Shown in pieces: positions 17,456 to 62,300 of a stretch of DNA of 64,000 nt. The notes below the pieces were generated by a model, which was not told the DNA's origin, searched no databases, and saw only the letters and a program-made list of their open reading frames with translations. The stretch lies in assembly GCA_963817895.1 (NCBI GenBank), contig CAWFQB010000005.1, forward strand, positions 832,001 through 896,000, given 5' to 3'. How positions within the stretch are numbered: the stretch's first letter is position 1; the number at the start of each line of letters is the position of its first letter. Made by a program: the position numbers and the translations under genes. The stretch comes from an uncultured Chthonomonadaceae bacterium. GTDB lineage: Bacteria > Armatimonadota > Chthonomonadetes > Chthonomonadales > Chthonomonadaceae.

Positions 17456-18050
17456 CCTGACGCTATTGCGCGACGCGACGCTGGAACGTCTGCTGGTTGT
17501 GCCGGGTATGAGCGAAATCAAGGCGCGGCACATACATACGTTTCTCGCCAACGCGCTTATTCTGACTGAGACGGAAGCAGTCACGAAATCGACGGATGGT
17601 GATGGGATTGCAGGGACGCAATCGGTTTCCATTCTGCCGACCACGCCTCTGCTCGACGCCAACAGCGGAAACGGCATCGCGGAAGCAGCACAACTATTAC
17701 CGACATGGCTGGTGGAAATGCAGGTTGCGCGGGATGAGACGGTTGCGCTGCTGACTAGCCGACACGCCCCGAATTTTCGCGCCCGTCTGCTGCGCGAACT
17801 GGTGCGGTTTGCCGCCGGCATCCCCGGATGGCAGCAGGGATTGATGCAGGGCGCGGAGAAAGATCAGGAACGCGCTTTGCGACGCGTCCGTCGCCTGCGC
17901 CTGTCGCTGATGGAAGCGCTGCCGCAAACCGAACCGGATCGCAAAACGCAGTCGCGCCTGGCCGAAGACATCGCGGAAGCCAGTGACCGCCTGTACGCTT
18001 TGAGCGGCCAAACGGAACCCACCCGCAGCACGGAGGACGCGCATGACTGA
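17178..18050 (+). CDS. Helix-hairpin-helix domain protein
   Basis: LRDIPGLGPIRIRALEKAG and LLVVPGMSEIKA tandem HhH motifs; GAGGAG RBS before ATG 17178. Confidence 0.75.
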   Translation: MPPTDKPRKSSARPVNRDTSPPPAAESRPAPRKKMANRSRKDTKAGKGETPAQAPELTVLPLPPPEPAIRALRDIPGLGPIRIRALEKAGLSSLTLLRDATLERLLVVPGMSEIKARHIHTFLANALILTETEAVTKSTDGDGIAGTQSVSILPTTPLLDANSGNGIAEAAQLLPTWLVEMQVARDETVALLTSRHAPNFRARLLRELVRFAAGIPGWQQGLMQGAEKDQERALRRVRRLRLSLMEALPQTEPDRKTQSRLAEDIAEASDRLYALSGQTEPTRSTEDAHD

Positions 18051-19110
18051 GGAAGAAGAGGAGAAGATACGAGATACGAGATACGAGATACGAGAAGGAG
18101 AGGAATCCCTCTCAACTCTCAACTCCCTGTATGCGGGCGTGGATGTTGGCACGAACTCCGTGAAGATGATTGTGGCGGATTTGGGAGAGGGGCGGGCGGA
18201 TCGCGTCTTTGAGCAGACTATTGTAACCCGGTTGGGCGAGGGGATGCAGGCGCAGGGCAACCGTTTGCGCGAAGCTGCCATGCGCCGCACCCTTGACGCT
18301 CTTGCGGAACTCGTGGACGCGGGACGGGCGCATCAGGCGCGCGCGTTTGCGGCGGTGGGGACGGCGGCATTGCGAGACGCGGAAAACCGTGACGATTTTT
18401 TGCAGAGGGCGCAGGAGCGAATGGGACTGAGCATTGACGTAATCCCCGGCGAGGAGGAGGCGCGATTGTCGTATCTGGCCGTGCGGCGCGACCCGCACTG
18501 GCGCGGGCAGGCGCATTTGCGCGTGATTGACATCGGCGGCGGCAGCACGGAGATCATCGAAGGGACGCCCAACGGGAACAACATCGCTTCGCGCATCAGC
18601 GTCAACTACGGGGCGGTGAAATTGACCGAGCAGTTTTTGCGCTCCGACCCGCCCACCGTTCAGCAGTTGGAAGACGCCAATCTTGCCGTACTCAAAGCAT
18701 TCGCGCGTATTGATGAGGAGGCTTTCCACTCCGCCGATACAGGGAGTGATAAGCCTGCCGCAACCGCCTTCGCGTCCTCGCAAGAGTATGCGCTGGTGGG
18801 GGTGGGCGGAACCGTCACCAATCTCGGCGCGATGGATCAGGGCGGCAAACTGGGCGACGAATCGCTCCACGGGCATCTGCTGACAGCCGACCAACTGGGC
18901 GAACACATTGACCGTCTGGCGACCCGGACTGTGGCGCAGCGGCTGGAACTCCCCGGCCTTGATCCACGTCGGGCTGACATCATTCTGGGAGGCGCGATCC
19001 TGCTGGCGCAGGCATTGTCCCGTCTGGATGCGCCCTCCCTCGCCATCAGCACGCGCGGCCTCCGCTGGGGGTTGCTGTATGACCGTTTTCAACAGGAGGT
19101 AGATGGGTAG
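18043..19110 (+). CDS. ppx: Ppx/GppA exopolyphosphatase (ASKHA domains)
   Basis: DVGTNSVK...TRLGEG...GTAALRDAEN...GEEEARLSY...DIGGGSTE...GVGGT...RADII.GG..L...GLRWGLL. Confidence 0.93.
   Translation: MTEEEEEKIRDTRYEIREGEESLSTLNSLYAGVDVGTNSVKMIVADLGEGRADRVFEQTIVTRLGEGMQAQGNRLREAAMRRTLDALAELVDAGRAHQARAFAAVGTAALRDAENRDDFLQRAQERMGLSIDVIPGEEEARLSYLAVRRDPHWRGQAHLRVIDIGGGSTEIIEGTPNGNNIASRISVNYGAVKLTEQFLRSDPPTVQQLEDANLAVLKAFARIDEEAFHSADTGSDKPAATAFASSQEYALVGVGGTVTNLGAMDQGGKLGDESLHGHLLTADQLGEHIDRLATRTVAQRLELPGLDPRRADIILGGAILLAQALSRLDAPSLAISTRGLRWGLLYDRFQQEVDG
18065..18125. repeat. (AGATACG)4 + (CTCAACT)2 arrays inside the ppx 5' end
   Basis: Encodes KIRDTRYEIRE...LSTLNS upstream of the first Ppx motif. 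Confidence 0.88.
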
Positions 19111-19183
19111 ATGGTAGATGGTAGATCAATCAATCGTGGTTTTCTACTCACCTACCCATCTACCCATCTACCCATCTACCTAC
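19098..19183. repeat. Inverted pair (G)GGTAGAT / ATCTACCC tandem arrays
   Basis: Left arm supplies the ppx TAG; right arm ends 6 nt before the HD-gene ATG. Confidence 0.9.
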
Positions 19184-19189
19184 TCAACC

Positions 19190-19810
19190 ATGAACCCAAA
19201 ACTCAACGCAATTCTGGAACTGGCGCGTCGTTATGATTATGACGCGGGACACGCGCATCAGGTGGAGTGCCTGGCGGGAACGCTGTTTATGGAGCTTCAG
19301 TCGCTGCATCAACTGGAGCGCGAAGACCGTAAACTGCTGGAGTACGCCGCCATTCTGCACGACATCGGCTATTATGTCAGCAGCAAGGGGCATCATCGCC
19401 ACGCCTTGCAGATGATTATGATGGAGCCGCTACCCGAGTTTACGCGGGAAGAAAAAGCGATTATCGCCAATCTTGCCCGCTACCATCGTAAAGTCCTGCC
19501 GACTATCGAGCATACCGCCTTCGGGATTTTGTCCGAGGGCGATAAGCAGCGCGTGGGCCTGCTTGCGCCCCTGCTGCGGCTTGCCGACGCGCTGGATCGG
19601 GGCCACAACAACCGCGTACAGGAACTGTTTTGCGACATAAGCGACGACGTGGTACTGATTTACGCGGGCGCGGAAGCCGAGTTGCCCGAGGAAGCCCGCG
19701 CTCTGGAACAGCGCGGCGACATGTTCCGGCACGTTTACCGCCGCGACCTGCAATTGCGCGTCCTGCGTCCCCGTCTGCCTGCCGCAAGCGCAGTGATGGT
19801 CGAGGGGTAG
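19190..19810 (+). CDS. HD-domain protein (stand-alone Ppx C-terminal HD domain)
   Basis: HAHQV..LA..LF...AAILHDIGY....GHHRH...IANLARYHRK...LRLADALDR. Confidence 0.9.
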   Translation: MNPKLNAILELARRYDYDAGHAHQVECLAGTLFMELQSLHQLEREDRKLLEYAAILHDIGYYVSSKGHHRHALQMIMMEPLPEFTREEKAIIANLARYHRKVLPTIEHTAFGILSEGDKQRVGLLAPLLRLADALDRGHNNRVQELFCDISDDVVLIYAGAEAELPEEARALEQRGDMFRHVYRRDLQLRVLRPRLPAASAVMVEG

Positions 19811-19815
19811 TCACA

Positions 19816-20205
19816 TTAAGCGTCAACAATAGCCTCGGCTTCAATTTCTACCAGCATGGCAGGGTCAATCAGGCGGCTGACCTGTATCATGCTGGTGGCG
19901 GGGCGAATCTGACTGAAAAACTCGCCGTGCGCTCTGCCGACAGACTCCCAATTGTCGATATCAAGCACGTACATGCGCGTTCTGACCACATCTTCTAATC
20001 CGGCTCCCGCCCTCTTCAAAGCCGCTTCGATGTTGTGAATAACCTGCACGGTCTGCGCGTAAGCATCGCCCGCGCCGACAACCTTGCCCTCCGCATCCGT
20101 CGCCGTTGTGCCGGATACATGAATTACATTCCCCACCCGTACCGCCCGCGAGTAGCCGACAATGGGCTCCCACGGCGTTCCCGAACCAAAATGTTGTCGC
20201 TGCAT
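19816..20205 (-). CDS. RidA/YjgF-family protein
   Basis: [22 protein letters not shown]...DVVRTRMY...RPATSM..V..L....LVEIEAEA. Confidence 0.93.
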
Positions 20206-20245
20206 GTTCGCCTCCCTGTTTTGGAAAAAGATATTTTACCCGGCC

Positions 20246-20292
20246 TTGACAATTTCGTGATGGCGCGGTACTATATCGTCAATTCCCGATAT
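20246..20292 (+). promoter_or_regulatory. Sigma70 promoter (TTGACA-N17-TACTAT) overlapped by an ATATCG-N8-CGATAT operator-like palindrome
   Basis: -35 at 20246, -10 at 20269, inverted repeat 20273..20292, directly before the ArsR gene. Confidence 0.75.
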
Positions 20293-20298
20293 GAGGAT

Positions 20299-20730
20299 AT
20301 GAGCGTGAATGATTTAGTTTTACTTGGCAAGGCGCTTGCTGACCCCACGCGCATTCGTATTCTGGCTCTGCTGCGCGGCGGGGAGTTGTGCGTTTGCGAG
20401 ATTGGCGACGCGCTGGAGATGAGTCAGTCTACCCTGTCCACGCACCTGCAAACTATTCGGCAGGCCGGTCTTGTTTCCACCCGTAAAAACGCGAAGTGGA
20501 GTTATTACGGCCTTGAGCCTGCCGCTCTGCCCGTTTTGGAATCTATTTTCGCGCATTACCAGGACGTTCTTGATGTAGACCAACGCTTGAAGCGCGACCA
20601 TGAGCGCGTGGAATGTCGCCTGCAATTGCGGGTGAACGGCTGCTGCGTTATCGGAATTGCGGCTCTGGAAAACAGCCTGATGGCAGGCTGTTGTTCGGAA
20701 ACTCAAACGAAGGGAGGTGAAGCGAAATGA
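20299..20730 (+). CDS. ArsR/SmtB-family metalloregulator with Cys-rich C-terminus
   Basis: KALADPTRIRIL.LL...ELCVCEI..AL..SQSTLSTHL..IRQAGLV; C-terminal GCC and GCCS pairs. Confidence 0.93.
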   Translation: MSVNDLVLLGKALADPTRIRILALLRGGELCVCEIGDALEMSQSTLSTHLQTIRQAGLVSTRKNAKWSYYGLEPAALPVLESIFAHYQDVLDVDQRLKRDHERVECRLQLRVNGCCVIGIAALENSLMAGCCSETQTKGGEAK

Positions 20731-20846
20731 CTCTGATTGAACTTACGCCCATCGCGGCAACGACGGAAACGGAGGGCGATTGCTGCCCGTGCCAATGCGA
20801 TTGCGAACCCGGCTGCAAGTGCGGCGGCTGTCCGTGCTGCGAGTAA
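20727..20846 (+). CDS. Metallothionein-like 39-aa peptide with 10 Cys (not in ORF track)
   Basis: MTLIELTPIAATTETEGDCCPCQCDCEPGCKCGGCPCCE*; GGAGGT RBS; ATGA overlap with the ArsR stop. Confidence 0.85.
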   Translation: MTLIELTPIAATTETEGDCCPCQCDCEPGCKCGGCPCCE

Positions 20847-20849
20847 TTT

Positions 20850-20973
20850 TTACCGGATGTTGAAAACACCCGGCAGAAAAGTGCAAGCGTCCTGCGGACG
20901 CGGGAATCTTGATAAAGAGTCGCGTCCGCAGGACGCTTGTTTTGTTGAGACGGGGATTTTCAATCCCCGGTAA
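20850..20973. repeat. REP/REPIN-like composite palindrome with GCGTCCTGCGGACGC core
   Basis: Outer TTACCGG...TTGAAAA / TTTTCAA...CCGGTAA; inner inverted hairpins; related to 22628, 24611 and 54061. Confidence 0.8.
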
Positions 20974-21107
20974 GCCCCGAATGACTCAAACGCTTTAAAG
21001 TTGAAGCGCTTTTCCATCGGTGATAAAGAGGAACTTCTTGCTGTCGTGCCGAAACATACGCGCAGATGTTTTCAGCAAAATGCGTTACGTGGGGAGTGAA
21101 AAGACTT

Positions 21108-22622
21108 GTGACGAACTCGAAAGTGTGCGTGATCGGGCTGGACTGCGCCGCGCCCGAACTGGTATTTGATTTGTGGGCCGATTTGCTGCCTAATCTGTGC
21201 GGCCTGATGCAGTCCGGCATGTATGGGCCATTGGAGAGTACGACGCCTCCGATTACCGTACCCGCGTGGATGTGCATGATGACCGGCAAAGACCCCGGCA
21301 CTCTGGGCATTTACGGCTTCCGCAACCGCCGCGACCACTCCTATGAGGGGCTTGCGTTCGCGTCCGGCAAAATGGTACAGGAACCGACGCTGTGGGATGT
21401 GCTGGCGGAACACAGCAAGCGTACCATCGCGCTCGGCGTACCCCTTACATATCCTCCGCGTCCCATTCACGGCCTGCTTGTCACCGATTTTCTGGCTCCC
21501 AATGTGGACAGCGATTACACCTACCCGCCGGAACTCAAACACGAAATCAAAGAGGTGGTAGGCGAGTACCTGTTCGATACCCGCGAGTTTCGCACGGAAG
21601 ACAAGGCGAAACTGCTGGATGATATTTACACCATGACCGCCCGCCGCTTTCAACTGGCGCAACATCTGATAACCACCAAGCCGTGGGACTTCTTCATCAT
21701 GGTGGAAATGGGGCCAGATCGAATCCATCACGCCTTCTGGAAGTATTTCGACCCCAAGCACCCCAAATACATCCCCGGGAACCCCTTTGAACACGCCATT
21801 CGCGATTACTACATCGCCCTCGACGCGCATATCGGGCAACTGCTTTCCACACTGGACGAAGACACGCGCATTTTGATTGTGTCTGATCACGGCGCGAAGC
21901 GAATGGATGGCGGCCTGTGTTTCAACGACTGGCTGATACAGGAGGGCTATTTAACGCTCAAGGAAACGCCCACTCCCGGCACAAAGTTTTCGCCCGCGCT
22001 CGTGGATTGGACGCGAACCAAAGCGTGGGGCGACGGGGGCTACTACGGACGTTTGTTCCTGAACGTGCAGGAGCGCGAACCGCAGGGCATTGTGCCGCCT
22101 GAAGACGTGGAAGCCCTGAAAGTGGAACTGACCACCAAACTGGAAGCCTTGCCCAATGAACACGGCAAGCCACTTGGCAACCGCGTTTTCCGCCCCGAAA
22201 CGCTTTACGCCCAATGCCGCAATGTCGCGCCCGACCTGATCGTATACTTTGGCGATCTGCACTGGCGCTCTGTGGGCAGTCTGGGCCATCCTCAAATCTG
22301 GACACACGACAACGACACCGGCCCCGACGACGCCAACCACGCGCAGCACGGCATTTTCATTATGGCAGAAGAAAAGAAAAGGAGAAAAGGAGAAGAGGAG
22401 AAAAGGAGACCCAATCCACAATCCACAATCCACAATCCACAATCGGGTTTGTCCCTGTACGATGTCGCGCCGACGGTTTTGAACGCGATGGGGATTGCGG
22501 TTCCGGCAGGGATGGGACGCAACGCGATTGGAACTGCGCCGACTCTGCGCCCGGACAGCGCGTATAGTGAAGAGGAAGAGGCGGAACTGGCGCGGCGATT
22601 GGAAGATTTGGGATACTTGTAA
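21108..22622 (+). CDS. Alkaline-phosphatase-superfamily phosphodiesterase/nucleotide pyrophosphatase
   Basis: VIGLDCA...PPITVPAW..MMTGKDPG.LGIYGF...DRIHHAFW...IVSDHG...DVAPTVL...RLEDLGYL; start approximate. Confidence 0.9.
   Translation: MTNSKVCVIGLDCAAPELVFDLWADLLPNLCGLMQSGMYGPLESTTPPITVPAWMCMMTGKDPGTLGIYGFRNRRDHSYEGLAFASGKMVQEPTLWDVLAEHSKRTIALGVPLTYPPRPIHGLLVTDFLAPNVDSDYTYPPELKHEIKEVVGEYLFDTREFRTEDKAKLLDDIYTMTARRFQLAQHLITTKPWDFFIMVEMGPDRIHHAFWKYFDPKHPKYIPGNPFEHAIRDYYIALDAHIGQLLSTLDEDTRILIVSDHGAKRMDGGLCFNDWLIQEGYLTLKETPTPGTKFSPALVDWTRTKAWGDGGYYGRLFLNVQEREPQGIVPPEDVEALKVELTTKLEALPNEHGKPLGNRVFRPETLYAQCRNVAPDLIVYFGDLHWRSVGSLGHPQIWTHDNDTGPDDANHAQHGIFIMAEEKKRRKGEEEKRRPNPQSTIHNPQSGLSLYDVAPTVLNAMGIAVPAGMGRNAIGTAPTLRPDSAYSEEEEAELARRLEDLGYL
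22371..22444. repeat. (GGAGAAAA)n + (AATCCAC)4 arrays in frame within the phosphodiesterase
   Basis: Encodes EKKRRKGEEEKRRPNPQSTIHNPQS between GIFIMA and GLSLYDVAPT. Confidence 0.92.
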
Positions 22623-22627
22623 GGAGA

Positions 22628-22829
22628 AGTGAGAGTACATTTCACTCCCGAACACATTCTTGCCAGGGGTTGAAAACCCCTGTCTACACGGCCTGCGGCC
22701 AAGCGTCCTTCGGACGCAAATGCTTATTTTGCAGTGAATCGCGTCCGAAGGACGCCTGGCGGAACGCCACTCAGACGGGTATTTTCAATACCCGGAAAAA
22801 TGTGTCCGGTAGTGAAATGTACTCTCACT
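22628..22829. mobile_element. MITE/REPIN-like element with 19-bp perfect terminal inverted repeat
   Basis: AGTGAGAGTACATTTCACT / AGTGAAATGTACTCTCACT; inner GCGTCCTTCGGACGC / GCGTCCGAAGGACGC. Confidence 0.78.
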
Positions 22830-22846
22830 CTCACCTGAAATTGACT

Positions 22847-23686: not shown

Positions 23687-23704
23687 ATCTCTTTTGCGAA
23701 GTTG

Positions 23705-38486: not shown

Positions 38487-39767
38487 ATGGTCTTTCCCCA
38501 ATCTTCTTCCAATTCTCCTGCGGCAGTGGCGGAGATTGTTCCGACCGATGCGGCTTCACCCTCTGTGGACGCGACAAATCCAACTGCGGATGTGATGAAG
38601 TCGGCAATCTCGACTGCGGCCTCAAAACCGCGCCTGCCGCAACTGGATTTTCTGCGGTTCGTCGCGATTATACTGGTGATGGGCCGCCATGCCATCCTGC
38701 CGCCGGAAGGAGCCGTGGGAATTCGACCGCTGGCGCAATGCTGGTACGATCTGGGCTGGACGGGCGTGGATTTGTTCTTCATCTTATCCGGCTTCCTGAT
38801 TGGCGGCCTGCTGTTCGCGGAACTGCGCCAGTACGGGACGTTTGACGCGCGGCGGTTCATCATTCGGCGCGGCTTCAAGATATGGCCCCTGTACCTGGGA
38901 TATGTCGCCATTATTATCGCGCTGATCCGCCACAAAGACCATGTTTCGCTCTGGCAAGCCTTTCTGCGGGCGTGGCCGTTTTATACGCACACGCAAAACT
39001 ACACGATGCACAGCGACCTGTATTTCAGATACCCGGTCACGCATCTGTGGAGTCTGGCTGTAGAGGAGCATTTTTACCTGCTGCTTCCCCCGTTACTCGT
39101 ATTCCTGACGCGCCGCGCGCCCGACGTTAAGCGGGCGATCCCCCTCTTTCCGGTCGCCGCCCTTGCCGTGATGCTCGGCTGCCTTGCGGTTCGCGCCCTG
39201 ACTTTTCATCATCCCATTACGCCCGAACGCAATATATGGCCCACGCATCTGCGTATAGACAGCCTGGCCTTCGGCGTCCTGCTGGCGTATGCCTGGCACT
39301 ACAAGCGCGCGTGGATTCAGCCCCTGTTAAATCGTCCCGGGTGGCTGCTTGTCGGGGGATTTGGCGTGATGGCGCTCATCTGGCCCTATCTGGGCCTCCC
39401 CGAATTCAACTGCATAACAGGGTATACGGTGCTGTATCTGGTTTATGGCTGTATTCTGCTGGCCTGCATGGCGTCCACCCTGCCGGAGCAGCAGAACGGG
39501 CGCATGGCCGCCTTTTTTCGCCTTGCCCCCTGCCGTTTTCTCGCGGGCATCGGCTTCTGGAGCTATTCCATTTATATTGTGCATCTGTGGGGGGGGCAGA
39601 AGCCGTCTCTATGGTTCCTGCACCAGAATATTCCGCTCAATCGAGACGCGCGCTGGCTGTTCGTCATGCTGCTGTATCTCGCCACATCCATTCTGCTCGG
39701 AACCCTGTGCGGCAGGCTGATTGAAAAGCCGACCCTTGCCCTGCGCAACCGCCTGTTTCCCGCCTGA
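38487..39767 (+). CDS. Acyltransferase_3 (OafA-like) membrane acyltransferase, copy 1
   Basis: LDFLRFVAI..V...H...GVDLFFILSGFLIG...RRGFKIWPLY...HLWSLAVEEHFY...G..SYSIY..H...IEKP. Confidence 0.92.
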   Translation: MVFPQSSSNSPAAVAEIVPTDAASPSVDATNPTADVMKSAISTAASKPRLPQLDFLRFVAIILVMGRHAILPPEGAVGIRPLAQCWYDLGWTGVDLFFILSGFLIGGLLFAELRQYGTFDARRFIIRRGFKIWPLYLGYVAIIIALIRHKDHVSLWQAFLRAWPFYTHTQNYTMHSDLYFRYPVTHLWSLAVEEHFYLLLPPLLVFLTRRAPDVKRAIPLFPVAALAVMLGCLAVRALTFHHPITPERNIWPTHLRIDSLAFGVLLAYAWHYKRAWIQPLLNRPGWLLVGGFGVMALIWPYLGLPEFNCITGYTVLYLVYGCILLACMASTLPEQQNGRMAAFFRLAPCRFLAGIGFWSYSIYIVHLWGGQKPSLWFLHQNIPLNRDARWLFVMLLYLATSILLGTLCGRLIEKPTLALRNRLFPA

Positions 39768-39826
39768 TTGCGGCAACCGCGCGAATTCAGACTGGCTGAT
39801 AGCGGTTCCCGCGCGGCGGCCGGCTA

Positions 39827-39855
39827 TTGACAAGCAGGTAAATGCGGCTTATAAT
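39827..39855 (+). promoter_or_regulatory. Perfect sigma70 consensus promoter TTGACA-N17-TATAAT
   Basis: TTGACA at 39827-39832, TATAAT at 39850-39855, about 100 nt before copy 2. Confidence 0.85.
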
Positions 39856-39954
39856 GAAGGTGTTTCTGCCTCATTTGCTTCCTCTTTCCAATATCGGCGC
39901 GTTGGCAATCCGGTACACTCTGTTGCGTACCCTCCTCCGGCGTGGAGTGTCTGT

Positions 39955-41241
39955 ATGGTTTTCCCTGATGTGTCTCAAAATTCTTTAGCACAAGTCAGGC
40001 TCACAGCGACGCAGGCGGCGGCGTCTGAGTCGGGTCTGCCGGATGCGATCTCCTCCCCTGTTGTCGCGCCGGAGATGATCGGGGCGACAACGGCATCCAG
40101 ACAACGCCTGCCGCAGCTGGATTTTCTGCGCTTCGTCGCCATCTTTTTAATTATCGGCCACCACATTATCATGCCGCCGCAGGAGGCCAACCGACTGGAG
40201 CCGATTGCGCATATCTGGCAGGTTTATGGCTGGACGGGTGTCGACCTGTTCTTTGTGCTGTCCGGCTTCCTCATCGGCGGGCTGCTATTCACGGAATTGC
40301 GCAAATCCGGCAAACTGGACGCGCGCCGGTTCATCATTCGGCGCGGGTTCAAGATATGGCCGCTGTACCTGGGGTACGTCGCGCTTATAATCGCGCTGAT
40401 CCATCACAGGACGCGCGTTTCGTGGTGGCAGGCAATTGGGCGCGCATGGCCGTTTTATACGCACACGCAGAACTACACGATGCACAGCGACCTGTACGTC
40501 AATTATCCTGTCGCGCACCTGTGGAGCCTGGCTGTAGAGGAGCATTTTTACCTGCTGCTTCCCCCGTTACTCGTATTCCTGACGCGCCGCGCGCCCGACG
40601 TTAAGCGGGCGATCCCCCTCTTTCCGGTCGCCGCCCTTGCCGTGATGCTCGGCTGCCTTGCGGTTCGCGCCCTGACTTTTCATCATCCCATTACGCCCGA
40701 ACGCAATATATGGCCCACGCATCTGCGTATAGACAGCCTGGCCTTCGGCGTCCTGCTGGCGTATGCCTGGCACTACAAGCGCGCGTGGATTCAGCCCCTG
40801 TTAAATCGTCCCGGGTGGCTGCTTGTCGGGGGATTTGGCGTGATGGCGCTCATCTGGCCCTATCTGGGCCTCCCCGAATTCAACTGCATAACAGGGTATA
40901 CGGTGCTGTATCTGGTTTATGGCTGTATTCTGCTGGCCTGCATGGCGTCCACCCTGCCGGAGCAGCAGAACGGGCGCATGGCCGCCTTTTTTCGCCTTGC
41001 CCCCTGCCGTTTTCTCGCGGGCATCGGCTTCTGGAGCTATTCCATTTATATTGTGCATCTGTGGGGGGGGCAGAAGCCGTCTCTATGGTTCCTGCACCAG
41101 AATATTCCGCTCAATCGAGACGCGCGCTGGCTGTTCGTCATGCTGCTGTATCTCGCCACATCCATTCTGCTCGGAACCCTGTGCGGCAGGCTGATTGAAA
41201 AGCCGACCCTTGCCCTGCGCAACCGCCTGTTTCCCGCCTGA
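39955..41241 (+). CDS. Acyltransferase_3 membrane acyltransferase, copy 2
   Basis: Same motifs as copy 1; 40528..41241 appears identical to 39054..39767. Confidence 0.92.
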   Translation: MVFPDVSQNSLAQVRLTATQAAASESGLPDAISSPVVAPEMIGATTASRQRLPQLDFLRFVAIFLIIGHHIIMPPQEANRLEPIAHIWQVYGWTGVDLFFVLSGFLIGGLLFTELRKSGKLDARRFIIRRGFKIWPLYLGYVALIIALIHHRTRVSWWQAIGRAWPFYTHTQNYTMHSDLYVNYPVAHLWSLAVEEHFYLLLPPLLVFLTRRAPDVKRAIPLFPVAALAVMLGCLAVRALTFHHPITPERNIWPTHLRIDSLAFGVLLAYAWHYKRAWIQPLLNRPGWLLVGGFGVMALIWPYLGLPEFNCITGYTVLYLVYGCILLACMASTLPEQQNGRMAAFFRLAPCRFLAGIGFWSYSIYIVHLWGGQKPSLWFLHQNIPLNRDARWLFVMLLYLATSILLGTLCGRLIEKPTLALRNRLFPA

Positions 41242-47450: not shown

Positions 47451-47741
47451 AGAAAAGGAGAAAAGGAGAAGAGGAGAAGAGGAGAAAGAAAACATCTGAC
47501 GTTGTGAATTTTGCGGCAGGGGTAAGGAAGGCGGGCAGAACTGCCGATACTGTAAACGATTCGAGTTCACCTTCCTTTCCTGGGTGGCAGGCTTTTCTCT
47601 CCTTTTGCCTGCCACTCTTTTTTCGCCTGCTTGTTTCTGTATACTCCTCTTTCCGGTCTTTTCTTTTGCTTTTTTTCGTGTGTTTGGCGTATTTCGCGGT
47701 TCCCCCTCTCCTCTTCTCCCCCTCTCCTTTTCTCCTTTTCT
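47451..47741. repeat. Inverted pair (GGAGAAAA/GGAGAAGA)n ... (TTTTCTCC)n with about 215-nt spacer
   Basis: Right arm abuts the stop of 47740..50334; spacer holds a degenerate TTTCGTGTGTTTGGCGTATTTCGCGGT arm. Confidence 0.8.
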
Positions 47742-51422: not shown

Positions 51423-54026
51423 CTACTTACCTGTGAACTGTTTGAGTTCGGCTTCGGTGAGTTTGTCTTTGCCATCCTTGCCGATTTGTATGGCGTTTTT
51501 GCCCAATCGGACAATCACTTCATCACCAACGGAGGAGTACGCGGCAAGACTGGGAACGGCGCGTAACAGGGCGAAATGCGCGTCGCTGTACGCCTGTATT
51601 TTCAGCAGGCCGTTGGCTTTGGCGTCGTAGGATTGATCCTGCCAGATGTTGCTGGCCTGCCGGTAGAAGGTTCGGTCATGGACGGCCTGTACCACAACCG
51701 CGTTGTTGTCGCCGGAGGATGCGGAGAATACGCCCAAGCTGTTGCCTTGCGACCGCGCCCCTCCGAAGTTGCCTGTTTTGGCTTTGCCGGCGAACACGGC
51801 TTGCGGCAGGTTGACGCTACCTGTACCGATGGAACCGCCTGCGCCCCCGCCTCCCAAACCGCCGGTGCCACCGCCGCCACTCGAAAGCGCGTAGACGCCC
51901 CCGTTCGCCGACTGGTAGCGTGGCGCGACTGTATCAGCGTTTTTGTAGTCTTTGGCCCGCGCGCTCTGATCGGTCACGCCTAATCCGGTTGCGCCGTACT
52001 GTGCCGCGCGACCGGCCACTTCCCGGCGCAAAATCTGGCTGTTCGCTTCGTCCAGTTTGAACAGCGAACCGTCCCTGCCGCGCAGACTGAGGGCGCGTTG
52101 TTCGCGGTCATCCACGAGGAATGAGGTGTACTCCGTGATGATACCGTATTCCCGCGACAGGCGCACAATCTCATCAATCAGTTCTTTGTTCCCCTGCGGG
52201 CTTGTCGCGGCGTTCAGCCGCAGTTGGTCAATTAAAAAGCCGATTTTGCGCTGCGCCCATAAACGCGGCACAAAGCCGTTTTCGCCGCCCGCGCTGCCGA
52301 ACGGCGCGCCCGCTTTGAATGTCTCCTGGCTGTCGTTCGCCATTCCTGCCAGATGGACTGTTCCCGACCTGTCGCCCCGGAACCGCCCCGTAATCACCAA
52401 TTGTGACCCTTTGAACAGGTCGGGCAGTTGTTTGGGAAAAACATCGTACACGTCCCCGCCATCGAACGCCAGTTTCACATTCGACAGCACAGGCGAGGCG
52501 ACTTTGGCGAAGAAGGAGGATACTTTCACTTCCACATCCTCTTCCGGCTTGATAAAATCGCTATCTCCCCGCTCCTGTTCGCCCAATCGGTCCAGAAACG
52601 GCACATTCACGTCGAACCCCAACCCGAAGCAGAAGATTCGCGCCTGCGTATTAACCTCAGCATCCCCCGCCTTCGCTTCTTCTAATTTCGTCTCTTTCAA
52701 CCCCGCCAATCGCGTTTGATGGGAATTGCCTTTTCCCTCTTCCCTCTTCCCTTTTCCCTCACCCGCCTGCGCCAGATGTTTCGCGCCGTTCAGTTCGCGG
52801 GCGTGCTGTAAAATGGTGTTGATGTTGGTTTCGCCCACAGTGGGCAGGCCGTCCGTCAGGAATACCACCATCTTTTGGGTTCCCGCATCGTCCTTGACCA
52901 GTTTCAGGGCGGCGCGGAGAGCCTCATCAATGTTGGTTCCGCCCGACGCTTCGATGTTCTCCACGAACTTGCGGGCGCGGCTGACGTTCGCCTCGCTTGC
53001 CGGTTCCAGCTTGGGCATCAGGATTTCCGCCGACTCGCTGAAGGTAATCACGTCGAAACGATCCTCTTTATGTAGGCTGTTCAGGCAATAGAGGAGGGAT
53101 TTTCGCGCCTGTTCGATCTTCTTGCCCGCCATCGAACCCGTTCTGTCCAGCACGAAAACAACCTGTTTGGGCAGAATTTTTTCTTTGGGAATGGACACGC
53201 GGGGCGAGGCAAGCAGGACAAAATAGCCGTCCCGATCCCCGCTCTTGTACGTCAGCAGGGACATGCCCACATCCTCATTGTTTGTGCTGAAATACAAACT
53301 CAGGTCGCGATCCGAAGCGTCGTTGCTGCCCTCATAAGAAGCGGACGCGCTGTGTTCATCGGTTTTGCGCACCGCAAGCTCGTGCGTGGGCGAATAGATG
53401 TTTTTGATGGGCGATTGCGTGGCGAGTTTGATGCTGACAACCGCTGTTCCCACCGGACGCGCGCCGAAACGGGACGTGGAAAGCGGGTAGGCGTATTTGC
53501 GCAGGCCGTTTTCGGGTTTCAGCACTTCCGTATAGCGCAGGGAGATTTTGCGTTCGCCATGCGCGGGTATGGGATACACGCTGATTTTCACCAGACCGCG
53601 CCCGACGTATTCCAATAGAGCCGGGTCGCGCCGCCGCCGCACAATCTCCTCGTAAATGCCCCGCGCCTCTTCCCGCGTTAAAATTTTGGGTTCCAGCGTC
53701 CGGTCGCCAACGGTCATGCTGAACGCGGTCGGGCTTGCGCCCTCCGGCAGGGGGTACAGATACGTGCCCTCCTGCTCCACGCTGCTGTCGTTGACGAAGG
53801 TTTGCTCCACAACGGTTTCGGCAACCGCGTCGTGAATGGTGGCGTTGACCCGCAAATCCTTCACGTAAAACGGCTGCAACAGGGGTACAGGAACGGGAAT
53901 GGGATGCGTCGGGCGAACGTGGGCTTCAGGAAACAGGATTCCCTGCGCCTGTCCGGGCTGCGCCATGCCTGCCGTCGCCAGCAACGCGGCAGTGGTCCCT
54001 AAAAATGATTGAAAACGACGGTTCAT
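51423..54026 (-). CDS. Secreted VIT + vWA domain protein
   Basis: Signal peptide; VEQTFVN...EGTYLYPLP; VFVLDRTGSM.G.KI; GGTNI..AL; FLTDGLPTVGE; LWAQRKI. Confidence 0.9.
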   Translation of the reverse strand: MNRRFQSFLGTTAALLATAGMAQPGQAQGILFPEAHVRPTHPIPVPVPLLQPFYVKDLRVNATIHDAVAETVVEQTFVNDSSVEQEGTYLYPLPEGASPTAFSMTVGDRTLEPKILTREEARGIYEEIVRRRRDPALLEYVGRGLVKISVYPIPAHGERKISLRYTEVLKPENGLRKYAYPLSTSRFGARPVGTAVVSIKLATQSPIKNIYSPTHELAVRKTDEHSASASYEGSNDASDRDLSLYFSTNNEDVGMSLLTYKSGDRDGYFVLLASPRVSIPKEKILPKQVVFVLDRTGSMAGKKIEQARKSLLYCLNSLHKEDRFDVITFSESAEILMPKLEPASEANVSRARKFVENIEASGGTNIDEALRAALKLVKDDAGTQKMVVFLTDGLPTVGETNINTILQHARELNGAKHLAQAGEGKGKREEGKGNSHQTRLAGLKETKLEEAKAGDAEVNTQARIFCFGLGFDVNVPFLDRLGEQERGDSDFIKPEEDVEVKVSSFFAKVASPVLSNVKLAFDGGDVYDVFPKQLPDLFKGSQLVITGRFRGDRSGTVHLAGMANDSQETFKAGAPFGSAGGENGFVPRLWAQRKIGFLIDQLRLNAATSPQGNKELIDEIVRLSREYGIITEYTSFLVDDREQRALSLRGRDGSLFKLDEANSQILRREVAGRAAQYGATGLGVTDQSARAKDYKNADTVAPRYQSANGGVYALSSGGGGTGGLGGGGAGGSIGTGSVNLPQAVFAGKAKTGNFGGARSQGNSLGVFSASSGDNNAVVVQAVHDRTFYRQASNIWQDQSYDAKANGLLKIQAYSDAHFALLRAVPSLAAYSSVGDEVIVRLGKNAIQIGKDGKDKLTEAELKQFTGK
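52729..52759. repeat. (GGGAAAA/GGGAAGA)4 array in frame within VIT-vWA
   Basis: Encodes EGKGKREEGKG inside a vWA loop insertion. Confidence 0.8.
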
Positions 54027-54198
54027 GGCTTGTTTCTCCTTACGTGATAACCGTGACCCACGCGACGGAATGAATTCTACAAGTGTTGAAAGCCTGTCTG
54101 CTGCAACGGAATGAATTCCTTTGCTATGGGCGCTTCGCGCCAAATGTCCTTCGGACATAACTCTCTTTGCAGAGACTCGCGTGTCCGAAGGACACTTA

Positions 54199-57031: not shown

Positions 57032-58753
57032 ATGCTACGTCAATTTTTCGCGTATTATCGGCCTCACCGCCGCCTGTTTGTGCTTGATTTCTCGTGCGCC
57101 GTGATTTCGGGACTTTTGGAACTGGCGTTTCCGCTTGCCGTCCGAACGTTCGTGGATAGATTGCTGCCGAGCCAGAACTGGAGTCTGATCCTGAGCGCGG
57201 CCATCGGCCTGCTCGTTATCTATCTGCTGAACACGGGCTTGCAGTATATCGTCAACTACTGGGGGCATGTGCTGGGCATCGCCATTGAAACCGAGATGCG
57301 GCGCAAGATTTTCGACCATCTGCAAAAACTCTCGTTTCGCTTCTACGATAACCAGAAGACCGGCCATTTAGTCGCCCGCGTCACCAAAGATTTGGAAGAG
57401 GTCGGCGAAGTGGCGCATCATGGCCCGGAAGACGCTTTTATTGCCGTGATGACCTTTCTCGGCTCGTTCTTCCTGATGTACGCGCTCAATCCCAAACTCG
57501 CGCTGCTTACCGGACTTGTGGTTCCGCCCATGACGTGGATTTCCACGCGGTACGGCGCGGCCATGACGCGGACATGGCGTTCCCTGTTCAGTCAGGTGGG
57601 GAATTTCAATGCGCGGATCGAGGAGAACGTGGGCGGGATTCGCGTGGTGCAGGCGTTTGCCAATGAAGACCACGAGCGAAGCCTGTTTGCCCACGACAAC
57701 CTGAAGTACCGCGATACGAAACTGGATGCCTACCGCCTGATGTCCAAAAGCATGTCCCTGAGTTACATGACCATGCGGATCGTGCAGCTTTTCGTGATGA
57801 TCGCGGGCGCGTATTTCGTGCTGCATGGACAATTGACAGTGGGCGGCTTTATGGGCTTTCTGCTGCTCGTGAACGTGTTCTTCCGGCCTGTGGAAAAAAT
57901 CAACGCCGTGCTGGAAACGTATCCCAAAGGCATTGCGGGCTTCAAACGCTATACCGAGTTGTTGGGAACCGTTCCCGATATTGCCGACGCGCCGGACGCG
58001 AAAGACATTGGACACCTGCACGGCGACATTCGCTTTGAGGGCGTCAGTTTCGGCTACGAGTCTCATAAAAAGGTGCTGAACGATATTGACCTGGTGATAC
58101 CGGCGGGAGAAACCGTGGCGTTTGTCGGGCCGAGCGGGGCGGGCAAGACCACGATTTGTTCGCTCGTGCCGCGCTTTTACGAGATCGAAACGGGCCGAAT
58201 CACCATTGACGGCATAGACATACGCCAAATGACATTGGCCTCCCTGCGCCGCAACATCGGCATCGTGCAGCAGGATGTGTTCCTGTTCGCCGGTTCGATT
58301 CGGGACAACATCGCTTACGGGAAACTGGACGCGACCGAACCGGAATTGTGGGAAGCGGCGCGGCGGGCGCGACTGGACGACATGATTTCGCAGTTGCCCG
58401 AAGGATTGGACACGATCATTGGAGAGCGCGGCGTGAAACTCTCCGGCGGGCAGAAACAGCGGCTGGCGATTGCGCGTATGTTCCTCAAGAACCCGCCGAT
58501 TCTGATACTGGATGAGGCCACGTCCGCATTGGACACGGAAACCGAGCGGGCGATACAGGCGTCGCTGTCGGAACTGGCGGTAGGCCGCACCACCCTCGTT
58601 ATAGCGCACCGACTGGCGACCATTCAGAACGCCGATAGAATTGTGGTTGTAGATGAAACCGGGGTTGCAGAACAGGGATTGCACCGCGATTTGATGTTTG
58701 CAGGCGGCGTGTACCAGCGTTTGCACGAGGCGCAGTTTCACGCGATGGCTTAG
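57032..58753 (+). CDS. ABC transporter, fused TMD-NBD
   Basis: E.AHHGPED; GPSGAGKTT; LSGGQKQR; ILDEATSALD. Confidence 0.94.
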   Translation: MLRQFFAYYRPHRRLFVLDFSCAVISGLLELAFPLAVRTFVDRLLPSQNWSLILSAAIGLLVIYLLNTGLQYIVNYWGHVLGIAIETEMRRKIFDHLQKLSFRFYDNQKTGHLVARVTKDLEEVGEVAHHGPEDAFIAVMTFLGSFFLMYALNPKLALLTGLVVPPMTWISTRYGAAMTRTWRSLFSQVGNFNARIEENVGGIRVVQAFANEDHERSLFAHDNLKYRDTKLDAYRLMSKSMSLSYMTMRIVQLFVMIAGAYFVLHGQLTVGGFMGFLLLVNVFFRPVEKINAVLETYPKGIAGFKRYTELLGTVPDIADAPDAKDIGHLHGDIRFEGVSFGYESHKKVLNDIDLVIPAGETVAFVGPSGAGKTTICSLVPRFYEIETGRITIDGIDIRQMTLASLRRNIGIVQQDVFLFAGSIRDNIAYGKLDATEPELWEAARRARLDDMISQLPEGLDTIIGERGVKLSGGQKQRLAIARMFLKNPPILILDEATSALDTETERAIQASLSELAVGRTTLVIAHRLATIQNADRIVVVDETGVAEQGLHRDLMFAGGVYQRLHEAQFHAMA

Positions 58754-58796
58754 AGCCTTCTGGAACGATTTTTCAAATTAATTATGAAGGAGTCAT

Positions 58797-59171
58797 TTGG
58801 TGCAAATACAGCAGGATTTGAAATATGACGGCAATGGATTGATTCCCGCCGTGGTGCAGGATGCGGCCAATGGCGACGTGCTGATGGTCGGTTATATGAA
58901 CCAGGAAGCCGTGAAACGGACGCTGGAAACAAAGCGCGTTACTTTTTGGAGTCGTTCGCGTCAACAATTCTGGGTGAAAGGTGAAACTTCCGGTAACGCG
59001 CAGCACGTTATAGAACTCTATGTGGACTGCGATCAGGACTGTCTGCTCGTGAAAGTGGAACAAGTCGGCGCGGCCTGTCACGAAGGCTACCGTTCCTGCT
59101 TCTTTCGCCGCATTGCCCCCGATGGCAACACACTCGAAACCATTGGCGAACCGTTGATGAAGAGTTACTAG
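58797..59171 (+). CDS. hisI: Phosphoribosyl-AMP cyclohydrolase
   Basis: GLIPAVVQD...VLMVGYMN...FWSRSR...W.KGETSGN.Q...DCDQD...[10 protein letters not shown]. Confidence 0.96.
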
Positions 59172-59289
59172 GTTTTAGGGTTCTATGGTTTTAGGGTTTT
59201 AGGCTGAAAGTATCTATGTGCAACCTGTAGTAGAAGTGTTGGTCTACTACTACAATCCTAACCTGAAACCATAGAACCCTAAAACCCTA
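59169..59289. repeat. Inverted pair of tandem octamer arrays (GGTTTTAG)n / (CTAAAACC)n
   Basis: Starts at the hisI TAG; variant GGTTCTAT unit mirrored as ATAGAACC in the right arm. Confidence 0.9.
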
Positions 59290-59322
59290 ACCACCTGTTT
59301 TACGAAGGGAACTACCCATAAT

Positions 59323-62300
59323 ATGTCCGCTTTGTCCGCTTTTCGCAGGAAGTTTGGTTCGCGCCGCCCGCTCGCTGCGGTTGTGGGAATGAGCGCGTTG
59401 TTTGGTGTTGGCAGTGTCGGACGGCCCGCGCAGGCCGCCGCGCCGCATTATTCCGACATCCTGCCCCTGAGCAAGATAAAGCCGGGAATGACGGGCTATG
59501 GCCTGACCACGTTCAAGGGAACGACCATTTCGCGCTTTGAAGTGACGGTTATCGGCATCATGCGCAAGGTCAACAACGGGCATGACCTGATTCTGGTGCG
59601 AATGAAGGGCGGCCCGATTACCGAGCGGGGCGCAAACCTCATTCACGGCATGAGCGGCAGCCCCATCTATATCAACGACAAGTGCATCGGCGCGTTTTCG
59701 CAGGGCGAACAGTGGCCCAAAGAACCCATCGGCATGGTCACGCCCATTGAAGACATGCTGGAAGCCTGGGACCCCGACATCCCGCAAACCCCACCCTATT
59801 TCCAGCCCGCCGATAAGCCGCCCACACCCGGCGGCGGCAATCCGTCACCGACGGATAAGAACAGACCGGGAGACAGGGAGACAGGGAGACAGAGAGAGGG
59901 AAAAGGAAAAAAGGAAAAGGATAAAGGGAAAACGGCTCTATCGTCTATCAACTATCAACTATCAACTCCTGAAACGATTACTCTGCCTTCGCCGATTACA
60001 GTGGGGAACAGGCGGATTAAAACGGTTGTGCTGAACGCCGGTCCGAACAGCAAACTGGCGAGTCGGTCTGATTGCGCCGTGCTGCACCGGGCGACCACAT
60101 TCGCGTCCGTCAGTGGCGTGACCGAAAAGGAAGTGGCGCTTTTTCAGAAGGAGTTGGACAAGCGCGGGTTTGCCATGACTTTGCAGCAGGCTCCCGTGAT
60201 GGGCGCGGGCAAGGCTAATATTCCCGCCTCGACGCTGAAGCCGGGTTCCGTATTCGGCACGTTTCTGTCGTCGGGTGATGTGGAGTTCGGCGCGTTTGGA
60301 ACCGTGACGTACCGCAAGGGCAACCGTATACTGGGATTCGGGCATCCGTTTATGGGCATGGGCGCATTGAACGCGGCTACCACAACCGCATCCGTCGTGG
60401 ATGTGTTTTCTGGCTTGCAGTCGTCGCATATCATTGCCGAGGCCGGCCCGGTTGTCGGCACATTTACGCAGGATCGCAACTTTTCCGTTGGCGCGGAATT
60501 GGGACGCAAGCCGTTTCAGATTCCGTTTACGATTACCGTCAACGACGAAAGCACGCACCGCATCCAAACGTTCCATACGCAGATGTTCCAGCATCCTGAC
60601 CTGACCGCCGCCCTGATGGGCATGATCGGACAGGCCGCCGTGTCGCGCATCCACAACATGCCGGGTGACATGATGGCGCGCGTGACCACAACGGTCGAGG
60701 CGGGCGAGGTGGGCAAAACCACGCGAACCAATCTGCTGTTCGACGCCGATGATATTTCGCAGGCCGTGACCAAAGACCTGACCGACATTACGGGAATCAT
60801 CAGCGGCAACCCGTTTTATCCCCTGCCGATCAAAGGCGCGAGCATGACCGTGAACCTGTACAGCGGGCATAACACGGCTACCATCGAGCGCATTTTCCTC
60901 AAGCAGGGACGGTATGAACCGGGGGATACGCTGGACGTTGGCGTTGTGCTGAAACCCTATCGCCGCGACCCGATTTACAAAAACCTGACGCTGAAAATCC
61001 CCTCCGACACGCCAACGGGACGCTACGCCCTTGCCGTGCGCGGCGGCTCGGCAACCGTGACGCGCATTGGCCCGTTCATTCTGTCCGGGGGTGGGGCGCA
61101 GGACACGCAGGCTCCGCCCGTCAACGTGCGGCAGATGCTGGCCCGTTTGAGCGCGCGGGAAACCAATACCGATATGGTAGCGCGTCTTGTCCTGAACACC
61201 GCCGCGCCCGCAATTGAGGGTGAAAAACTGTCGCAACTGCCGCCCAATCTGGCCGTGCTGATGCGCAGCGACCGCAATTCCGGCGTTCGTATCGAGCGCG
61301 ACGAAGTGCGAACAACCGCCCCGACGGATTACGTCGTGAGCGGGACGCAGCAGCTTGTCGTGACCGTCGTGCGCAAGAACACGCAGGAGATACCCGGCCC
61401 GGTCACATTCCCAGGTTCGTCCGGCGCTGCTACCTCCACCGGCAGCAGCTCCTCCTCGTCGCTCCAGAGCGGCAGCAGCAGCGCGTCCGCGCAGGACGAT
61501 GACGCCAAAGCCACTCCCGACACCGCGAACATGGGTTTATTGCAGTTCGGTAACGAGACGCAACGCTGGCTGGACGAACTGACAGGCGCGAAAAGGGTAA
61601 ATGAGACAACGGCAGAGCAGGACCCACCCGTAAATCCGCTGAAGCCGCCCGTTACCGACGACAAAACCAAAACGGACAAGAACGCCAAACCTAAAAACGG
61701 CAAGCAGGCAGTTGTGGTTCCGCCTGCGCCTGTGGCTGTCGCGCCCCCTGTTGTGACCGGCGACACCAAACCCGCCACCACGCCCAATGACAACGAACCC
61801 GTGAAAATCGTCGCCCGCCAACTGCAGGTATGGCGGCAAACGGGCGCGAACGGCTTCGCGTCCGGCAAGTTCATGGGAACCAGCGTGGCGGCAACCGGGG
61901 AACTGCGGCTCGCGTCGCGCCTGCGCCGCCTTGCCACCACAAACGAAACCTACATCTGGTCAGTGGTCACGGATAATCAGGGCAATGTGTACGCGGGAAC
62001 CGGCACGACGGGTAAAATCCTCAAAGTGGACGCGAACGGCGGCCTGAAAACCTTCGCGCAACTGCCCATCGTGTCCGTGCAAAGCCTGTTGTTGGCAAAA
62101 GACGGCACGATGTGGGCGGGCAGCAGCGTGAAGGGCCAGTTGTTTCACGTCAAGCAGGACGGCACGTATACCCTGACCGCAACCCTGCCGGAAAAATACA
62201 TCCTTGCGCTGGCTGAAGACAGTCAGGGCAATGTGTACGCGGGTCCGGGCGGGGGAGGAAACATCTATAAAATTCCCGTCGGCTATTCCGCGCCCGACCC

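Follow-up and report, generated by a model that had tools for sequence, protein, structure and literature searches.

The window analysed here is a stretch of 64,000 nt from a soil bacterium, an uncultured member of the Chthonomonadaceae (contig CAWFQB010000005.1, positions 832,001 to 896,000; assembly of 7.48 Mb in 14 contigs, labelled G000). Four of its protein genes carry short tandem arrays of 7- or 8-nt units: a ppx/gppA-family gene, a phosphodiesterase gene, a gene with VIT and vWA domains and a gene for a large secreted protein with an S55 (SpoIVB-like) peptidase segment. These arrays, called arms below and either G-rich (G arms) or C-rich (C arms), belong to a genome-wide family of arm cassettes. 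Inside proteins, members of this family lie in frame and are probably translated and filtered by selection. The arrays of the window were located by Tandem Repeats Finder (TRF) and by direct reading of the sequence, and genes outside the window were called with a simple codon-usage caller made for this analysis (6854 genes, 80% coding). The genome was compared with 40 relatives (41 genomes with G000), among them G001 and G002, the two other species of the same genus, and G023, from another genus. The genes and arrays, with three intergenic hairpins of the window, are the following.

18043..19110, + strand: ppx/gppA-family gene (Pfam Ppx-GppA, E = 2.5e-53)
18065..18095, + strand: ppx G arm, AGATACG x4.4, 100% matches (TRF), reads IRDTRYEIRE in the N-terminal extension
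18109..18125, + strand: short ppx C arm, CTCTCAA x2.4 (TRF), reads LSTLNS, non-complementary to the G arm
21066..22622, + strand: type I phosphodiesterase / AlkP-superfamily gene (Pfam PF01663, E = 1.9e-45)
22375..22409, + strand: phosphodiesterase G arm, AGAAAAGG x4.4 with one variant unit (TRF), reads EKKRRKGEEEKRR
22412..22444, + strand: phosphodiesterase C arm, CAATCCA x4.7, 100% matches (TRF), reads NPQSTIHNPQS, directly after the G arm
51423..54158, - strand: VIT + vWA gene (Pfam VIT, E = 1.3e-28; VWA_2, E = 1.9e-17)
52729..52760, - strand: single vWA arm, CCTCTTC x4.6 on the + strand, GAGGGAA in sense (TRF), reads GEGKGKREEGKG in a variable loop
59323..63987, + strand: gene for a large secreted protein, S55 (SpoIVB-like) peptidase segment and Reg_prop repeats (Pfam)
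59863..59897, + strand: S55-gene G arm, AGACAGGG x4.4 (TRF)
59897..59932, + strand: second S55-gene G arm, degenerate GGAAAAG-like array adjoining the first (TRF)
59945..59967, + strand: S55-gene C arm, CTATCAA x3.3 (TRF), reads SINYQLST
2515..2613, no strand: intergenic hairpin with perfect arms, TTCAGGTA x4.9 / ACCTGAAT x4.8 (-69.5 kcal/mol, fold z = -14.4)
19098..19180, no strand: intergenic hairpin, GGTAGAT(G) x4, 16-nt spacer, TCTACCCA x4.8 (fold z = -7.5)
59171..59290, no strand: intergenic hairpin, GGTTTTAG / CCTAAAAC (TRF)

An initial annotation of the window had placed in-frame arrays in these four genes. All four sites were recovered in open frames with clear or weak Pfam identity. 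The weak one is Peptidase_S55 (26.8 bits, cut-off 25; E = 6.3e-6). The ATG of ppx overlaps the TGA stop of the upstream gene, and this ATGAsTGA start is kept in the three species of the genus. Both ppx arms named in the initial annotation are present, 13 nt apart, but the second has just 2.4 copies. The peptide RKGEKEKRR given in that annotation is not literal: at the G arm the phosphodiesterase protein reads EEKKRRKGEEEKRR, owing to the variant unit. Both G arms of the S55 gene (59863..59932) are translated jointly as PGDRETGRQREGKGKKEKDKGK. The four in-protein inserts measure 32-105 nt and enclose no gene. RNA folding of the three two-arm inserts gave z = -2.2, -0.66 (ppx) and +0.55, no better than shuffles. 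The stop codon of ppx falls within the first units of the 19098..19180 hairpin.

To place these arms within the genome, TRF was applied to the whole assembly, keeping non-overlapping arrays with a period of 7 or 8 and at least 2.8 copies. This yielded 2080 arrays (1375 of period 7, 705 of period 8) of 351 unit types. Chance does not produce such numbers, as judged by a 910-kb contig with 340 TRF rows of period 7/8, compared to 4, 6 and 4 in three Markov simulations (223 and 0, respectively, for rows with at least four copies). Median copy numbers are 4.3 for period 7 and 4.2 for period 8, and 674 of the 1375 heptamer arrays fall into the 4.5 bin. A single unit can be found at as many as ~180 loci. 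Its start phase is fixed, the first base being identical in 85 of 109 AAGGATG arrays, and an imperfect 28-mer with a variant third unit, the one found in the phosphodiesterase G arm, has 53 genomic copies. Because copy number is peaked, phase is fixed and imperfect cassettes recur, the arrays behave as copies of defined cassettes of ~31-38 nt. By inspection, the commonest units (ACGAGAT, AAGGATG, AACAACCT, AAAAGGAG) are devoid of any run of three G.

Arrays within 150 nt of one another were grouped into 1294 clusters. Of these, 576 are intergenic and 349 extend over a gene end; the others lie near a start (62), near a stop (39) or deep in genes (268). Arrays are thus under-represented in coding DNA, with 369 of 1294 clusters wholly within called genes that cover 80% of the genome. 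Intergenic hairpins are built from the same cassettes as those in genes (58 with ACGAGAT, 21 with AAGGATG). Two candidate origins were rejected at this level. A master locus rich in cassettes was not seen: the arrays are evenly spread, with a density of 18-44 per 100 kb over two contigs, and no 5-kb bin has more than 10. A classical miniature transposable element with a conserved interior does not fit hairpins which share the same arms and have spacers of 7-78 nt unlike in sequence, and only 28 of 333 spacers resemble another spacer. Inspection by eye of three copies of a 104-nt composite, described below, showed no target-site duplication. An AATGC motif lies within 6 nt of the inner edge of an arm in ~82 of 442 spacers and may belong to another dispersed repeat. 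A heptamer-unrelated repeat of ~35 nt, present in up to 37 copies and containing AAATGCAATC, may account for it.

We then asked whether arrays called inside genes respect the reading frame. For 191 in-gene clusters, restricted to unit families with at least 5 arrays, the 174-nt flanks were scored. Both flanks scored best in the frame of the open reading frame (ORF) itself for 165 of them, as they did for 573 of 600 random in-gene control sites. At least 165 in-frame clusters are therefore present, in 149 of the 6854 called genes (~2%). The genes concerned have a median length of 597 residues, and the clusters are found chiefly in the central part of the protein.

Units of 7 or 8 nt in tandem get read in all three phases, so the sense strand must be stop-free throughout and the peptide acceptable. 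Sense usage is strongly one-sided, with unit to complement ratios of 65:1 for AAAAGGAG, 32:2 for ACGAGAT, 22:1 for AAGAGGAG, 21:0 for AACCACC and 13:0 for AAAAGGG. The bias holds even where the complement is stop-free too. K, E, R, G, N, Q, S, T and P abound in the favoured readings, and L, F, V, W and C in the avoided ones. The peptide cycle of AAAAGGAG occurs in 77 called proteins, that of ATCCTTC in 51 and that of AGATACG in 36. Judged from these readings, one-sided sense usage is strong indirect evidence that the array segments are translated, and such segments are probably disordered.

The two arms of a cluster relate differently inside and outside genes. Among 77 verified in-gene two-arm clusters, 12 are complementary, 1 is intermediate and 64 are not complementary, compared to 377 complementary and 82 non-complementary among 475 intergenic and gene-end two-arm clusters (Fisher p = 1e-29). 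Selection on the peptide probably accounts for most of the in-gene non-complementarity, since hydrophilic arms have complements that encode hydrophobic peptides. In addition, long stems might be harmful to an mRNA. Arms of period 7 and 8 are combined in 42 of the 77 clusters.

The order of the arms is nearly always the same. Among two-array clusters, 561 run from G-rich to C-rich (384 complementary, 20 intermediate and 157 non-complementary) and 4 in reverse. The initial annotation held that the G-rich arm comes first even in pairs which cannot pair. This is borne out by verified in-gene clusters, with 100 G-to-C and 1 C-to-G transitions, and in the larger sample of all adjacent arrays the order is far from random (638 against 9). 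As either order would read alike on both strands, the G-first order is a real property of the element. It extends to single arrays, which on the sense strand are G-type rather than C-type by stop codons (164 vs 26) and C-type rather than G-type by start codons (87 vs 17). The median distance is 2 nt from the upstream stop to the beginning of a pair and 17 nt from the end of a pair to the downstream start. G-first order was also observed in G002 (13 vs 0) and G023 (8 vs 0).

Selection for pairing at the RNA level was rejected as the source of arm likeness. In 310 complementary pairs, mismatches are symmetric in sense (164 of G.U type, 178 of A.C type). Therefore the likeness of the arms reflects copying at the DNA level, not selection on an RNA stem. 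The claim of the initial annotation that polarity comes from mechanism rather than from hairpin selection gains from this absence of wobble bias and from the polarity of single arms. It loses the argument drawn from non-complementary pairs, as these are also expected from selection on the peptide.

Comparison with orthologues defines what was inserted at the four focal places, where the repeats were not found in other genera. Homology of ppx begins at residue 27-31 in all 38 relatives matched, and no ATG, GTG or TTG occurs from the first ATG up to residue 33. Since no alternative start exists and the ATG/TGA overlap is conserved in three species, the N-terminal extension is coding. It contains AGATACG/CTCTCAA here, GGGAACA x4 / CCCAACA x4-5 in G002 and a degenerate GGAGAAA-like run in G001. 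In other genera it is short and repeat-free.

Phosphodiesterase orthologues are present in 24 of 41 genomes. When 20 sequences are aligned, the insert takes the place of a variable loop that joins a strand to a helix. In an AlphaFold2 model (mean pLDDT 77.8, pTM 0.81), it is placed between strand 428-435 and helix 464-474. The model makes its K/E/R-rich part helical and gives residues 448-455 a pLDDT <50. The loop has 26 residues in the window and 53 in G002, where it consists of a purine-rich arm, CAATCGG x5 and CTTCATC x4. Loops of other genera are non-repetitive and of ~11-25 residues, with one of ~65.

The vWA array is absent in 15 aligned orthologues, those of G001 and G002 included. Only this genome has the insertion, and the loop that holds it ranges from ~5 to 60 residues among these orthologues. 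The G002 orthologue (L065, contig C32) is found in two pieces in different frames, with the break in the same variable loop and no array. This could be a real frameshift or an assembly error. In the S55 gene, the linker between conserved anchors is shorter in G002 (165 nt) and longer in G001 (192 nt) than here (180 nt). G002 shares the GGAAAAG-like run, followed by CCCTCAA x4 where the window has CTATCAA, and G001 retains a degenerate G arm. In 11 other orthologues the linker is repeat-free and of 30-153 nt. Its length is a multiple of 3 in all 14 orthologues with both anchors, six further loci without an anchor being left out of the count.

The initial annotation also proposed that the arrays add new peptide to protein loops. 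The repeats do lie in variable regions and keep the frame. However, for both the phosphodiesterase and the vWA protein, variable loops about as long are already present in the orthologues at these sites, so the repeats occupy and partly replace pre-existing loops.

Some in-gene arrays form fixed composites. A build common to many in-gene clusters comprises an optional purine-rich arm and AGATACG x4.4, then ~10 nt of linker similar to AGGAGAGGAT, and lastly TCATCCT x4. By pattern search, a 69-nt module was found in 25 copies, 20 of them exactly 69 nt. Ten copies lie outside called genes and 15 inside, the latter all in sense orientation and exactly 69 nt, or 23 codons, in 14 cases. A 104-nt composite occurs in three different genes with a common internal variant unit. 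Such fixed composites imply that some pairs were copied whole, as in-frame units.

Other comparisons point to rapid exchange. AGATACG is the commonest unit here, with 276 matches to its x3 pattern (one mismatch allowed) and none in the 40 relatives, both congeners included. Its counterpart in G002 is GGGAACA, both at the ppx N-terminus and at an orthologous site in a second gene. At a third orthologous site, AAGGATG/CATCCTT here stands against AATGATG/CATCATT, a one-base change in both arms. At the 3' junction of ppx, GTAGATG is found here, GTAGACG in G002 and GGAGAAA in G001, with differing spacers between conserved flanks. At the phosphodiesterase site, two database orthologues, 91% and 92% identical overall, retain the G-arm peptide wholly or partly; it is identical in the one at 91%. 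The window and these two have three different C arms, all in frame: the window's CAATCCA, one of GAAYACC type and one with an ATCCTTC unit. CAATCCA is replaced by other arms in P0005, P0006 and G002. Arms at one site can therefore be replaced separately and quickly, which agrees with the initial claim that left and right arms arise independently. That claim is limited by the composites copied whole.

Ordinary microsatellite behaviour, in which a 7-8-nt word would slip locally and in-frame lengths would be selected without any mobile cassette, has some appeal in view of these data. In many bacterial genomes, heptamers are reported to be over-represented more than any other long simple repeat (PMC4679880, PMC4692102), and one-base differences present in all copies of an array (GTAGATG vs GTAGACG, AAGGATG vs AATGATG) fit slippage with homogenisation. 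Nevertheless, we regard it as improbable. Slippage does not account for units at up to ~180 loci in a fixed start phase, for identical imperfect cassettes that recur, one of them 53 times, for a composite of exactly 69 nt in 20 of 25 copies or for 104-nt copies which share an internal variant. In addition, copy number is peaked and not geometric, and unrelated units replace arms at the same site.

Array density varies sharply among relatives. Estimated from sampled DNA with an array filter stricter than that of the whole-assembly count, it is as follows.

This genome: 21.5 arrays per 100 kb
G002 (same genus): 23.5 arrays per 100 kb
G023 (another genus): 27 arrays per 100 kb
G001 (same genus): 3 arrays per 100 kb
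15 other relatives: 0-3.3 arrays per 100 kb

Two genes of this genome encode a small four-helix-bundle protein (PF05635; 131 and 121 bits), each between a G arm and a C arm. Inverted arms of tandem units flank all 12 PF05635 loci examined in 12 genomes, and 11 of these are G-first. The sole C-first locus (L160, G005:C1, ~955451-955765) belongs to a genome without free arrays in 100 kb. In the window, the 59171..59290 hairpin has GGTTTTAG with the variant GGTTCTAT, as in the arms around one four-helix-bundle gene, and the units of the 19098..19180 hairpin approximate the GGTAGATG arms of the second cassette. The three array-rich genomes (G000, G002, G023) each have two or three PF05635 copies. 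G001, array-poor and 97% complete, has no PF05635 gene and no perfect arrays (0/12, vs 11/55 here). PF05635 and array density correlate with a Spearman coefficient of 0.57 (p = 0.01; Mann-Whitney p = 0.07), values which are overstated since the genomes are related. Taken together, these data suggest a weak link between the arrays and the four-helix-bundle gene. A tblastn search found no further fragments of such genes in the genome.

Two other families were considered as array writers and rejected. Y1_Tnp (PF01797, RAYT/IS200 type) is found in 26 of 41 genomes, array-free ones included. RVT_1 (PF00078) is found in 17 of 41, with none in array-rich G023 (97% complete) and five in array-free G020. 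The single RVT_1 gene here (G000:C6:132948-133580, open frame of 503 aa) has counterparts of 484 aa in both congeners.

These distributions bear on a telomere-like healing process, in which a reverse transcriptase or similar enzyme would add G-rich repeats to both 3' ends of a break before joining. The geometry fits, the G-rich strand running 5' to 3' toward the centre from both sides; arms could differ; and the unit vocabulary switches between congeners as it would with a changed trans-acting template. We consider such healing quite unlikely, because the presence of RVT_1 does not track the arrays, copies are fixed near 4.4 where processive addition would vary, imperfect cassettes are copied faithfully and spacers of 7-135 nt are left unexplained.

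Another way to read repeats in genes is phase variation, gain or loss of a unit toggling the host protein as at contingency loci. Units that are not multiples of three do lie inside ORFs, one of them near a 5' end, and with periods 7 and 8 paired in 42 of 77 two-arm clusters, one unit added to each arm keeps the frame. This function is nonetheless very unlikely. Copy numbers are almost constant, the ppx start is conserved, the hosts are housekeeping enzymes and not surface antigens, and all anchored orthologues are in frame: 14/14 S55 linkers and, at three further in-gene sites checked, 11/11 sequences with both anchors. At one of these three sites, that of AAGGATG/CATCCTT, the 90 nt found here are missing (0 nt) in G020. 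Finally, that the arrays are untranslated, either cut from the RNA or lying in mis-called ORFs, is hardly credible, for even if related 23S rRNA hairpin elements are reported to be excised by RNase III (PMC4990558) and the ppx array, without the repeats, could pass for a 5' UTR, in-protein pairs offer no stem to RNase III, ppx has no alternative start before residue 33 with homology from 27-31, and neither a hydrophilic sense bias nor composites all in sense would exist in unread DNA.

In our preferred reading, that of translated cassettes under selection, the basic element is a cassette of ~31-38 nt in which a unit of 7 or 8 nt is repeated four to five times from a fixed start phase. Its intergenic form is a polar hairpin of G-rich arm, spacer and C-rich arm, the G-rich strand running 5' to 3' away from the flanking gene, and the same build encloses the two small PF05635 genes. 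Cassettes or fixed composites would land or expand in tolerant parts of proteins, such as N-terminal extensions, loops and inter-domain linkers. Selection would then retain a frame-preserving length, a sense strand that is stop-free in three phases, a hydrophilic reading and the absence of a long stem. In-protein pairs would thus be non-complementary because of these filters, selection rather than mechanism being the likely cause, and yet G-first because the order is inherited from the build of the element. Arms at a site are exchanged or rewritten fast and independently, with site and frame persisting. We suspect that new arms are written by DNA-level copying from other cassettes, acting on one arm at a time and possibly tied to the four-helix-bundle cassette.

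Several observations weigh against this reading. The gene calls are crude, with a stop in the called sense strand of 19 of 469 'in-gene' arrays, and 26 of 191 in-gene clusters failed the flank test. Translation of the array peptides is deduced from the DNA sequence. Composites show copying of whole units, so arms are not always independent, and the reading offers no explanation for a G-rich outer strand in ~350 unit types. Regarding the four-helix-bundle gene, nine genomes that carry PF05635 have only 0-3.3 arrays per 100 kb, and the units in the four focal proteins differ from those of both four-helix-bundle cassettes. Moreover, blastn of 333 spacers against the two cassette interiors returned 5 matches of 11-13 nt each, and hairpins were accordingly rejected as deletion remnants of these cassettes.

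A more specific proposal, which we advance tentatively and hold to be doubtful, is that a site-bound process, perhaps linked to the four-helix-bundle gene, overwrites arms of 31-38 nt singly with copies of other cassettes, the G-rich strand being laid outward to inward. If so, site-bound rewriting would keep making new peptide loops at ~150 sites in otherwise conserved enzymes. It would represent a natural, non-targeted generator of loop diversity, unlike diversity-generating retroelements and simple slippage.

Tandem heptamers beside genes have long been known in bacteria and are unexplained. The closest parallel to the intergenic form is the convergent heptamer repeats of Xanthomonas campestris and X. 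axonopodis (GGGAATC) and of Nostoc (GGGGA(C/T)T) (Rehm et al. 2015, PMC4692102). In Xanthomonas, 70-75 convergent pairs with the G-rich arm first are reported, mostly between genes of the same direction, the G-rich strand being sense within 50 bp after a stop and antisense within 50 bp before a start (PMC4692102). The ~four units, the convergence, the geometry by stop and start, the placement between co-directional genes and the dispersal are all reproduced here. In that report, however, one unit per genus, a G-quadruplex interpretation and a rare coding location (7-11%) are described, whereas the present genome has ~350 unit types, mostly without G-tracts, a species-specific vocabulary and the in-frame clusters counted above. 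As the four-unit rule and the G-first order hold for hundreds of unit types free of G-tracts, the rule cannot be a quadruplex requirement and the quadruplex explanation cannot be general. The intergenic form is thus of a known but unexplained kind, related to the literature on short tandemly repeated repetitive (STRR) sequences and long simple sequence repeats.

The PF05635 loci recall the intervening sequences (IVS) of 23S rRNA with S23p (PF05635), where heptamer inverted repeats enclose a four-helix-bundle gene (PMC4990558). In Coxiella, the S23p-bearing IVS has tandem heptamers in its terminal stem, their number is strain-variable and RNase III cuts at the first repeat (Warrier et al. 2016, PMC4990558). 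In contrast, the four in-protein arrays enclose no gene, form no RNase III stem, use other units and sit in protein genes. Rickettsia palindromic elements (RPE), which are palindromes of 105-146 bp and fixed sequence described in 19 reading frames (Delihas, PMC2229807), are likewise small, dispersed, both intergenic and in frame in conserved proteins, and add tolerated peptide. Unlike RPE, the inserts here are composites of tandem 7/8-mers, of 32-140 nt, modular, non-palindromic in genes and exchanged arm-wise. The tandem repeats of Borgs (PMC9879509) also evolve fast and are reported to add low-complexity, probably disordered segments to proteins. The present arrays have units that are not multiples of three, arms that are each read in three phases and a build that is polar and two-armed.

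In the full-text literature searched, supplements aside, we found no paper that links free heptamer hairpins to the four-helix-bundle gene and no description of such heptamers inside proteins at scale. New here, relative to that literature, are the large number of in-frame cases, the fact that a single arm is read in three phases and passes a strong hydrophilic filter, the fixed in-frame composites, the arm-by-arm replacement between near-identical orthologues, and the four-unit rule and polarity without G-tracts. As naturally occurring loop insertions, the arrays lend themselves to studying how new segments are tolerated or used by proteins. They will also confront gene callers and aligners with spurious 'low-complexity' differences between close species. 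With an array-rich pair of species and an array-poor species without the four-helix-bundle gene, the genus suits a search for the arm-writing process.

Other arrays of the window were noted. At 17037-17160, three adjoining arrays (GGAGAAAA x4.8, CAATCGA x4.7 and CCTTCAT x4.6) sit at the overlap of two long ORFs (16391-17455 and 17022-18050) and may add another in-frame example, located either at a C-terminus or at an N-terminus. Their three-arm combination also occupies the G002 phosphodiesterase loop. A nested arrangement at 11053-11185 consists of CACAGAGG x3, a spacer, TTTCTCCT x5 and GCCTCTGT x2, the outer arms being complementary with a C arm of another unit inside. At 47451-47741, two minus-strand genes are separated by a region that holds a AGAAAAGG array and one of TCTCCTCT type. 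The ~220 nt between these arrays make an unusually long spacer, which might enclose something small. Unrelated to the heptamer arrays is a dispersed hairpin of ~30 nt, with ~43 copies genome-wide and its loop in either orientation. Lastly, two adjacent paralogous genes at 38526-41241 contain the same 10-nt tandem motif in corresponding places (39378 and 40852), a sign that the gene was recently duplicated in tandem.

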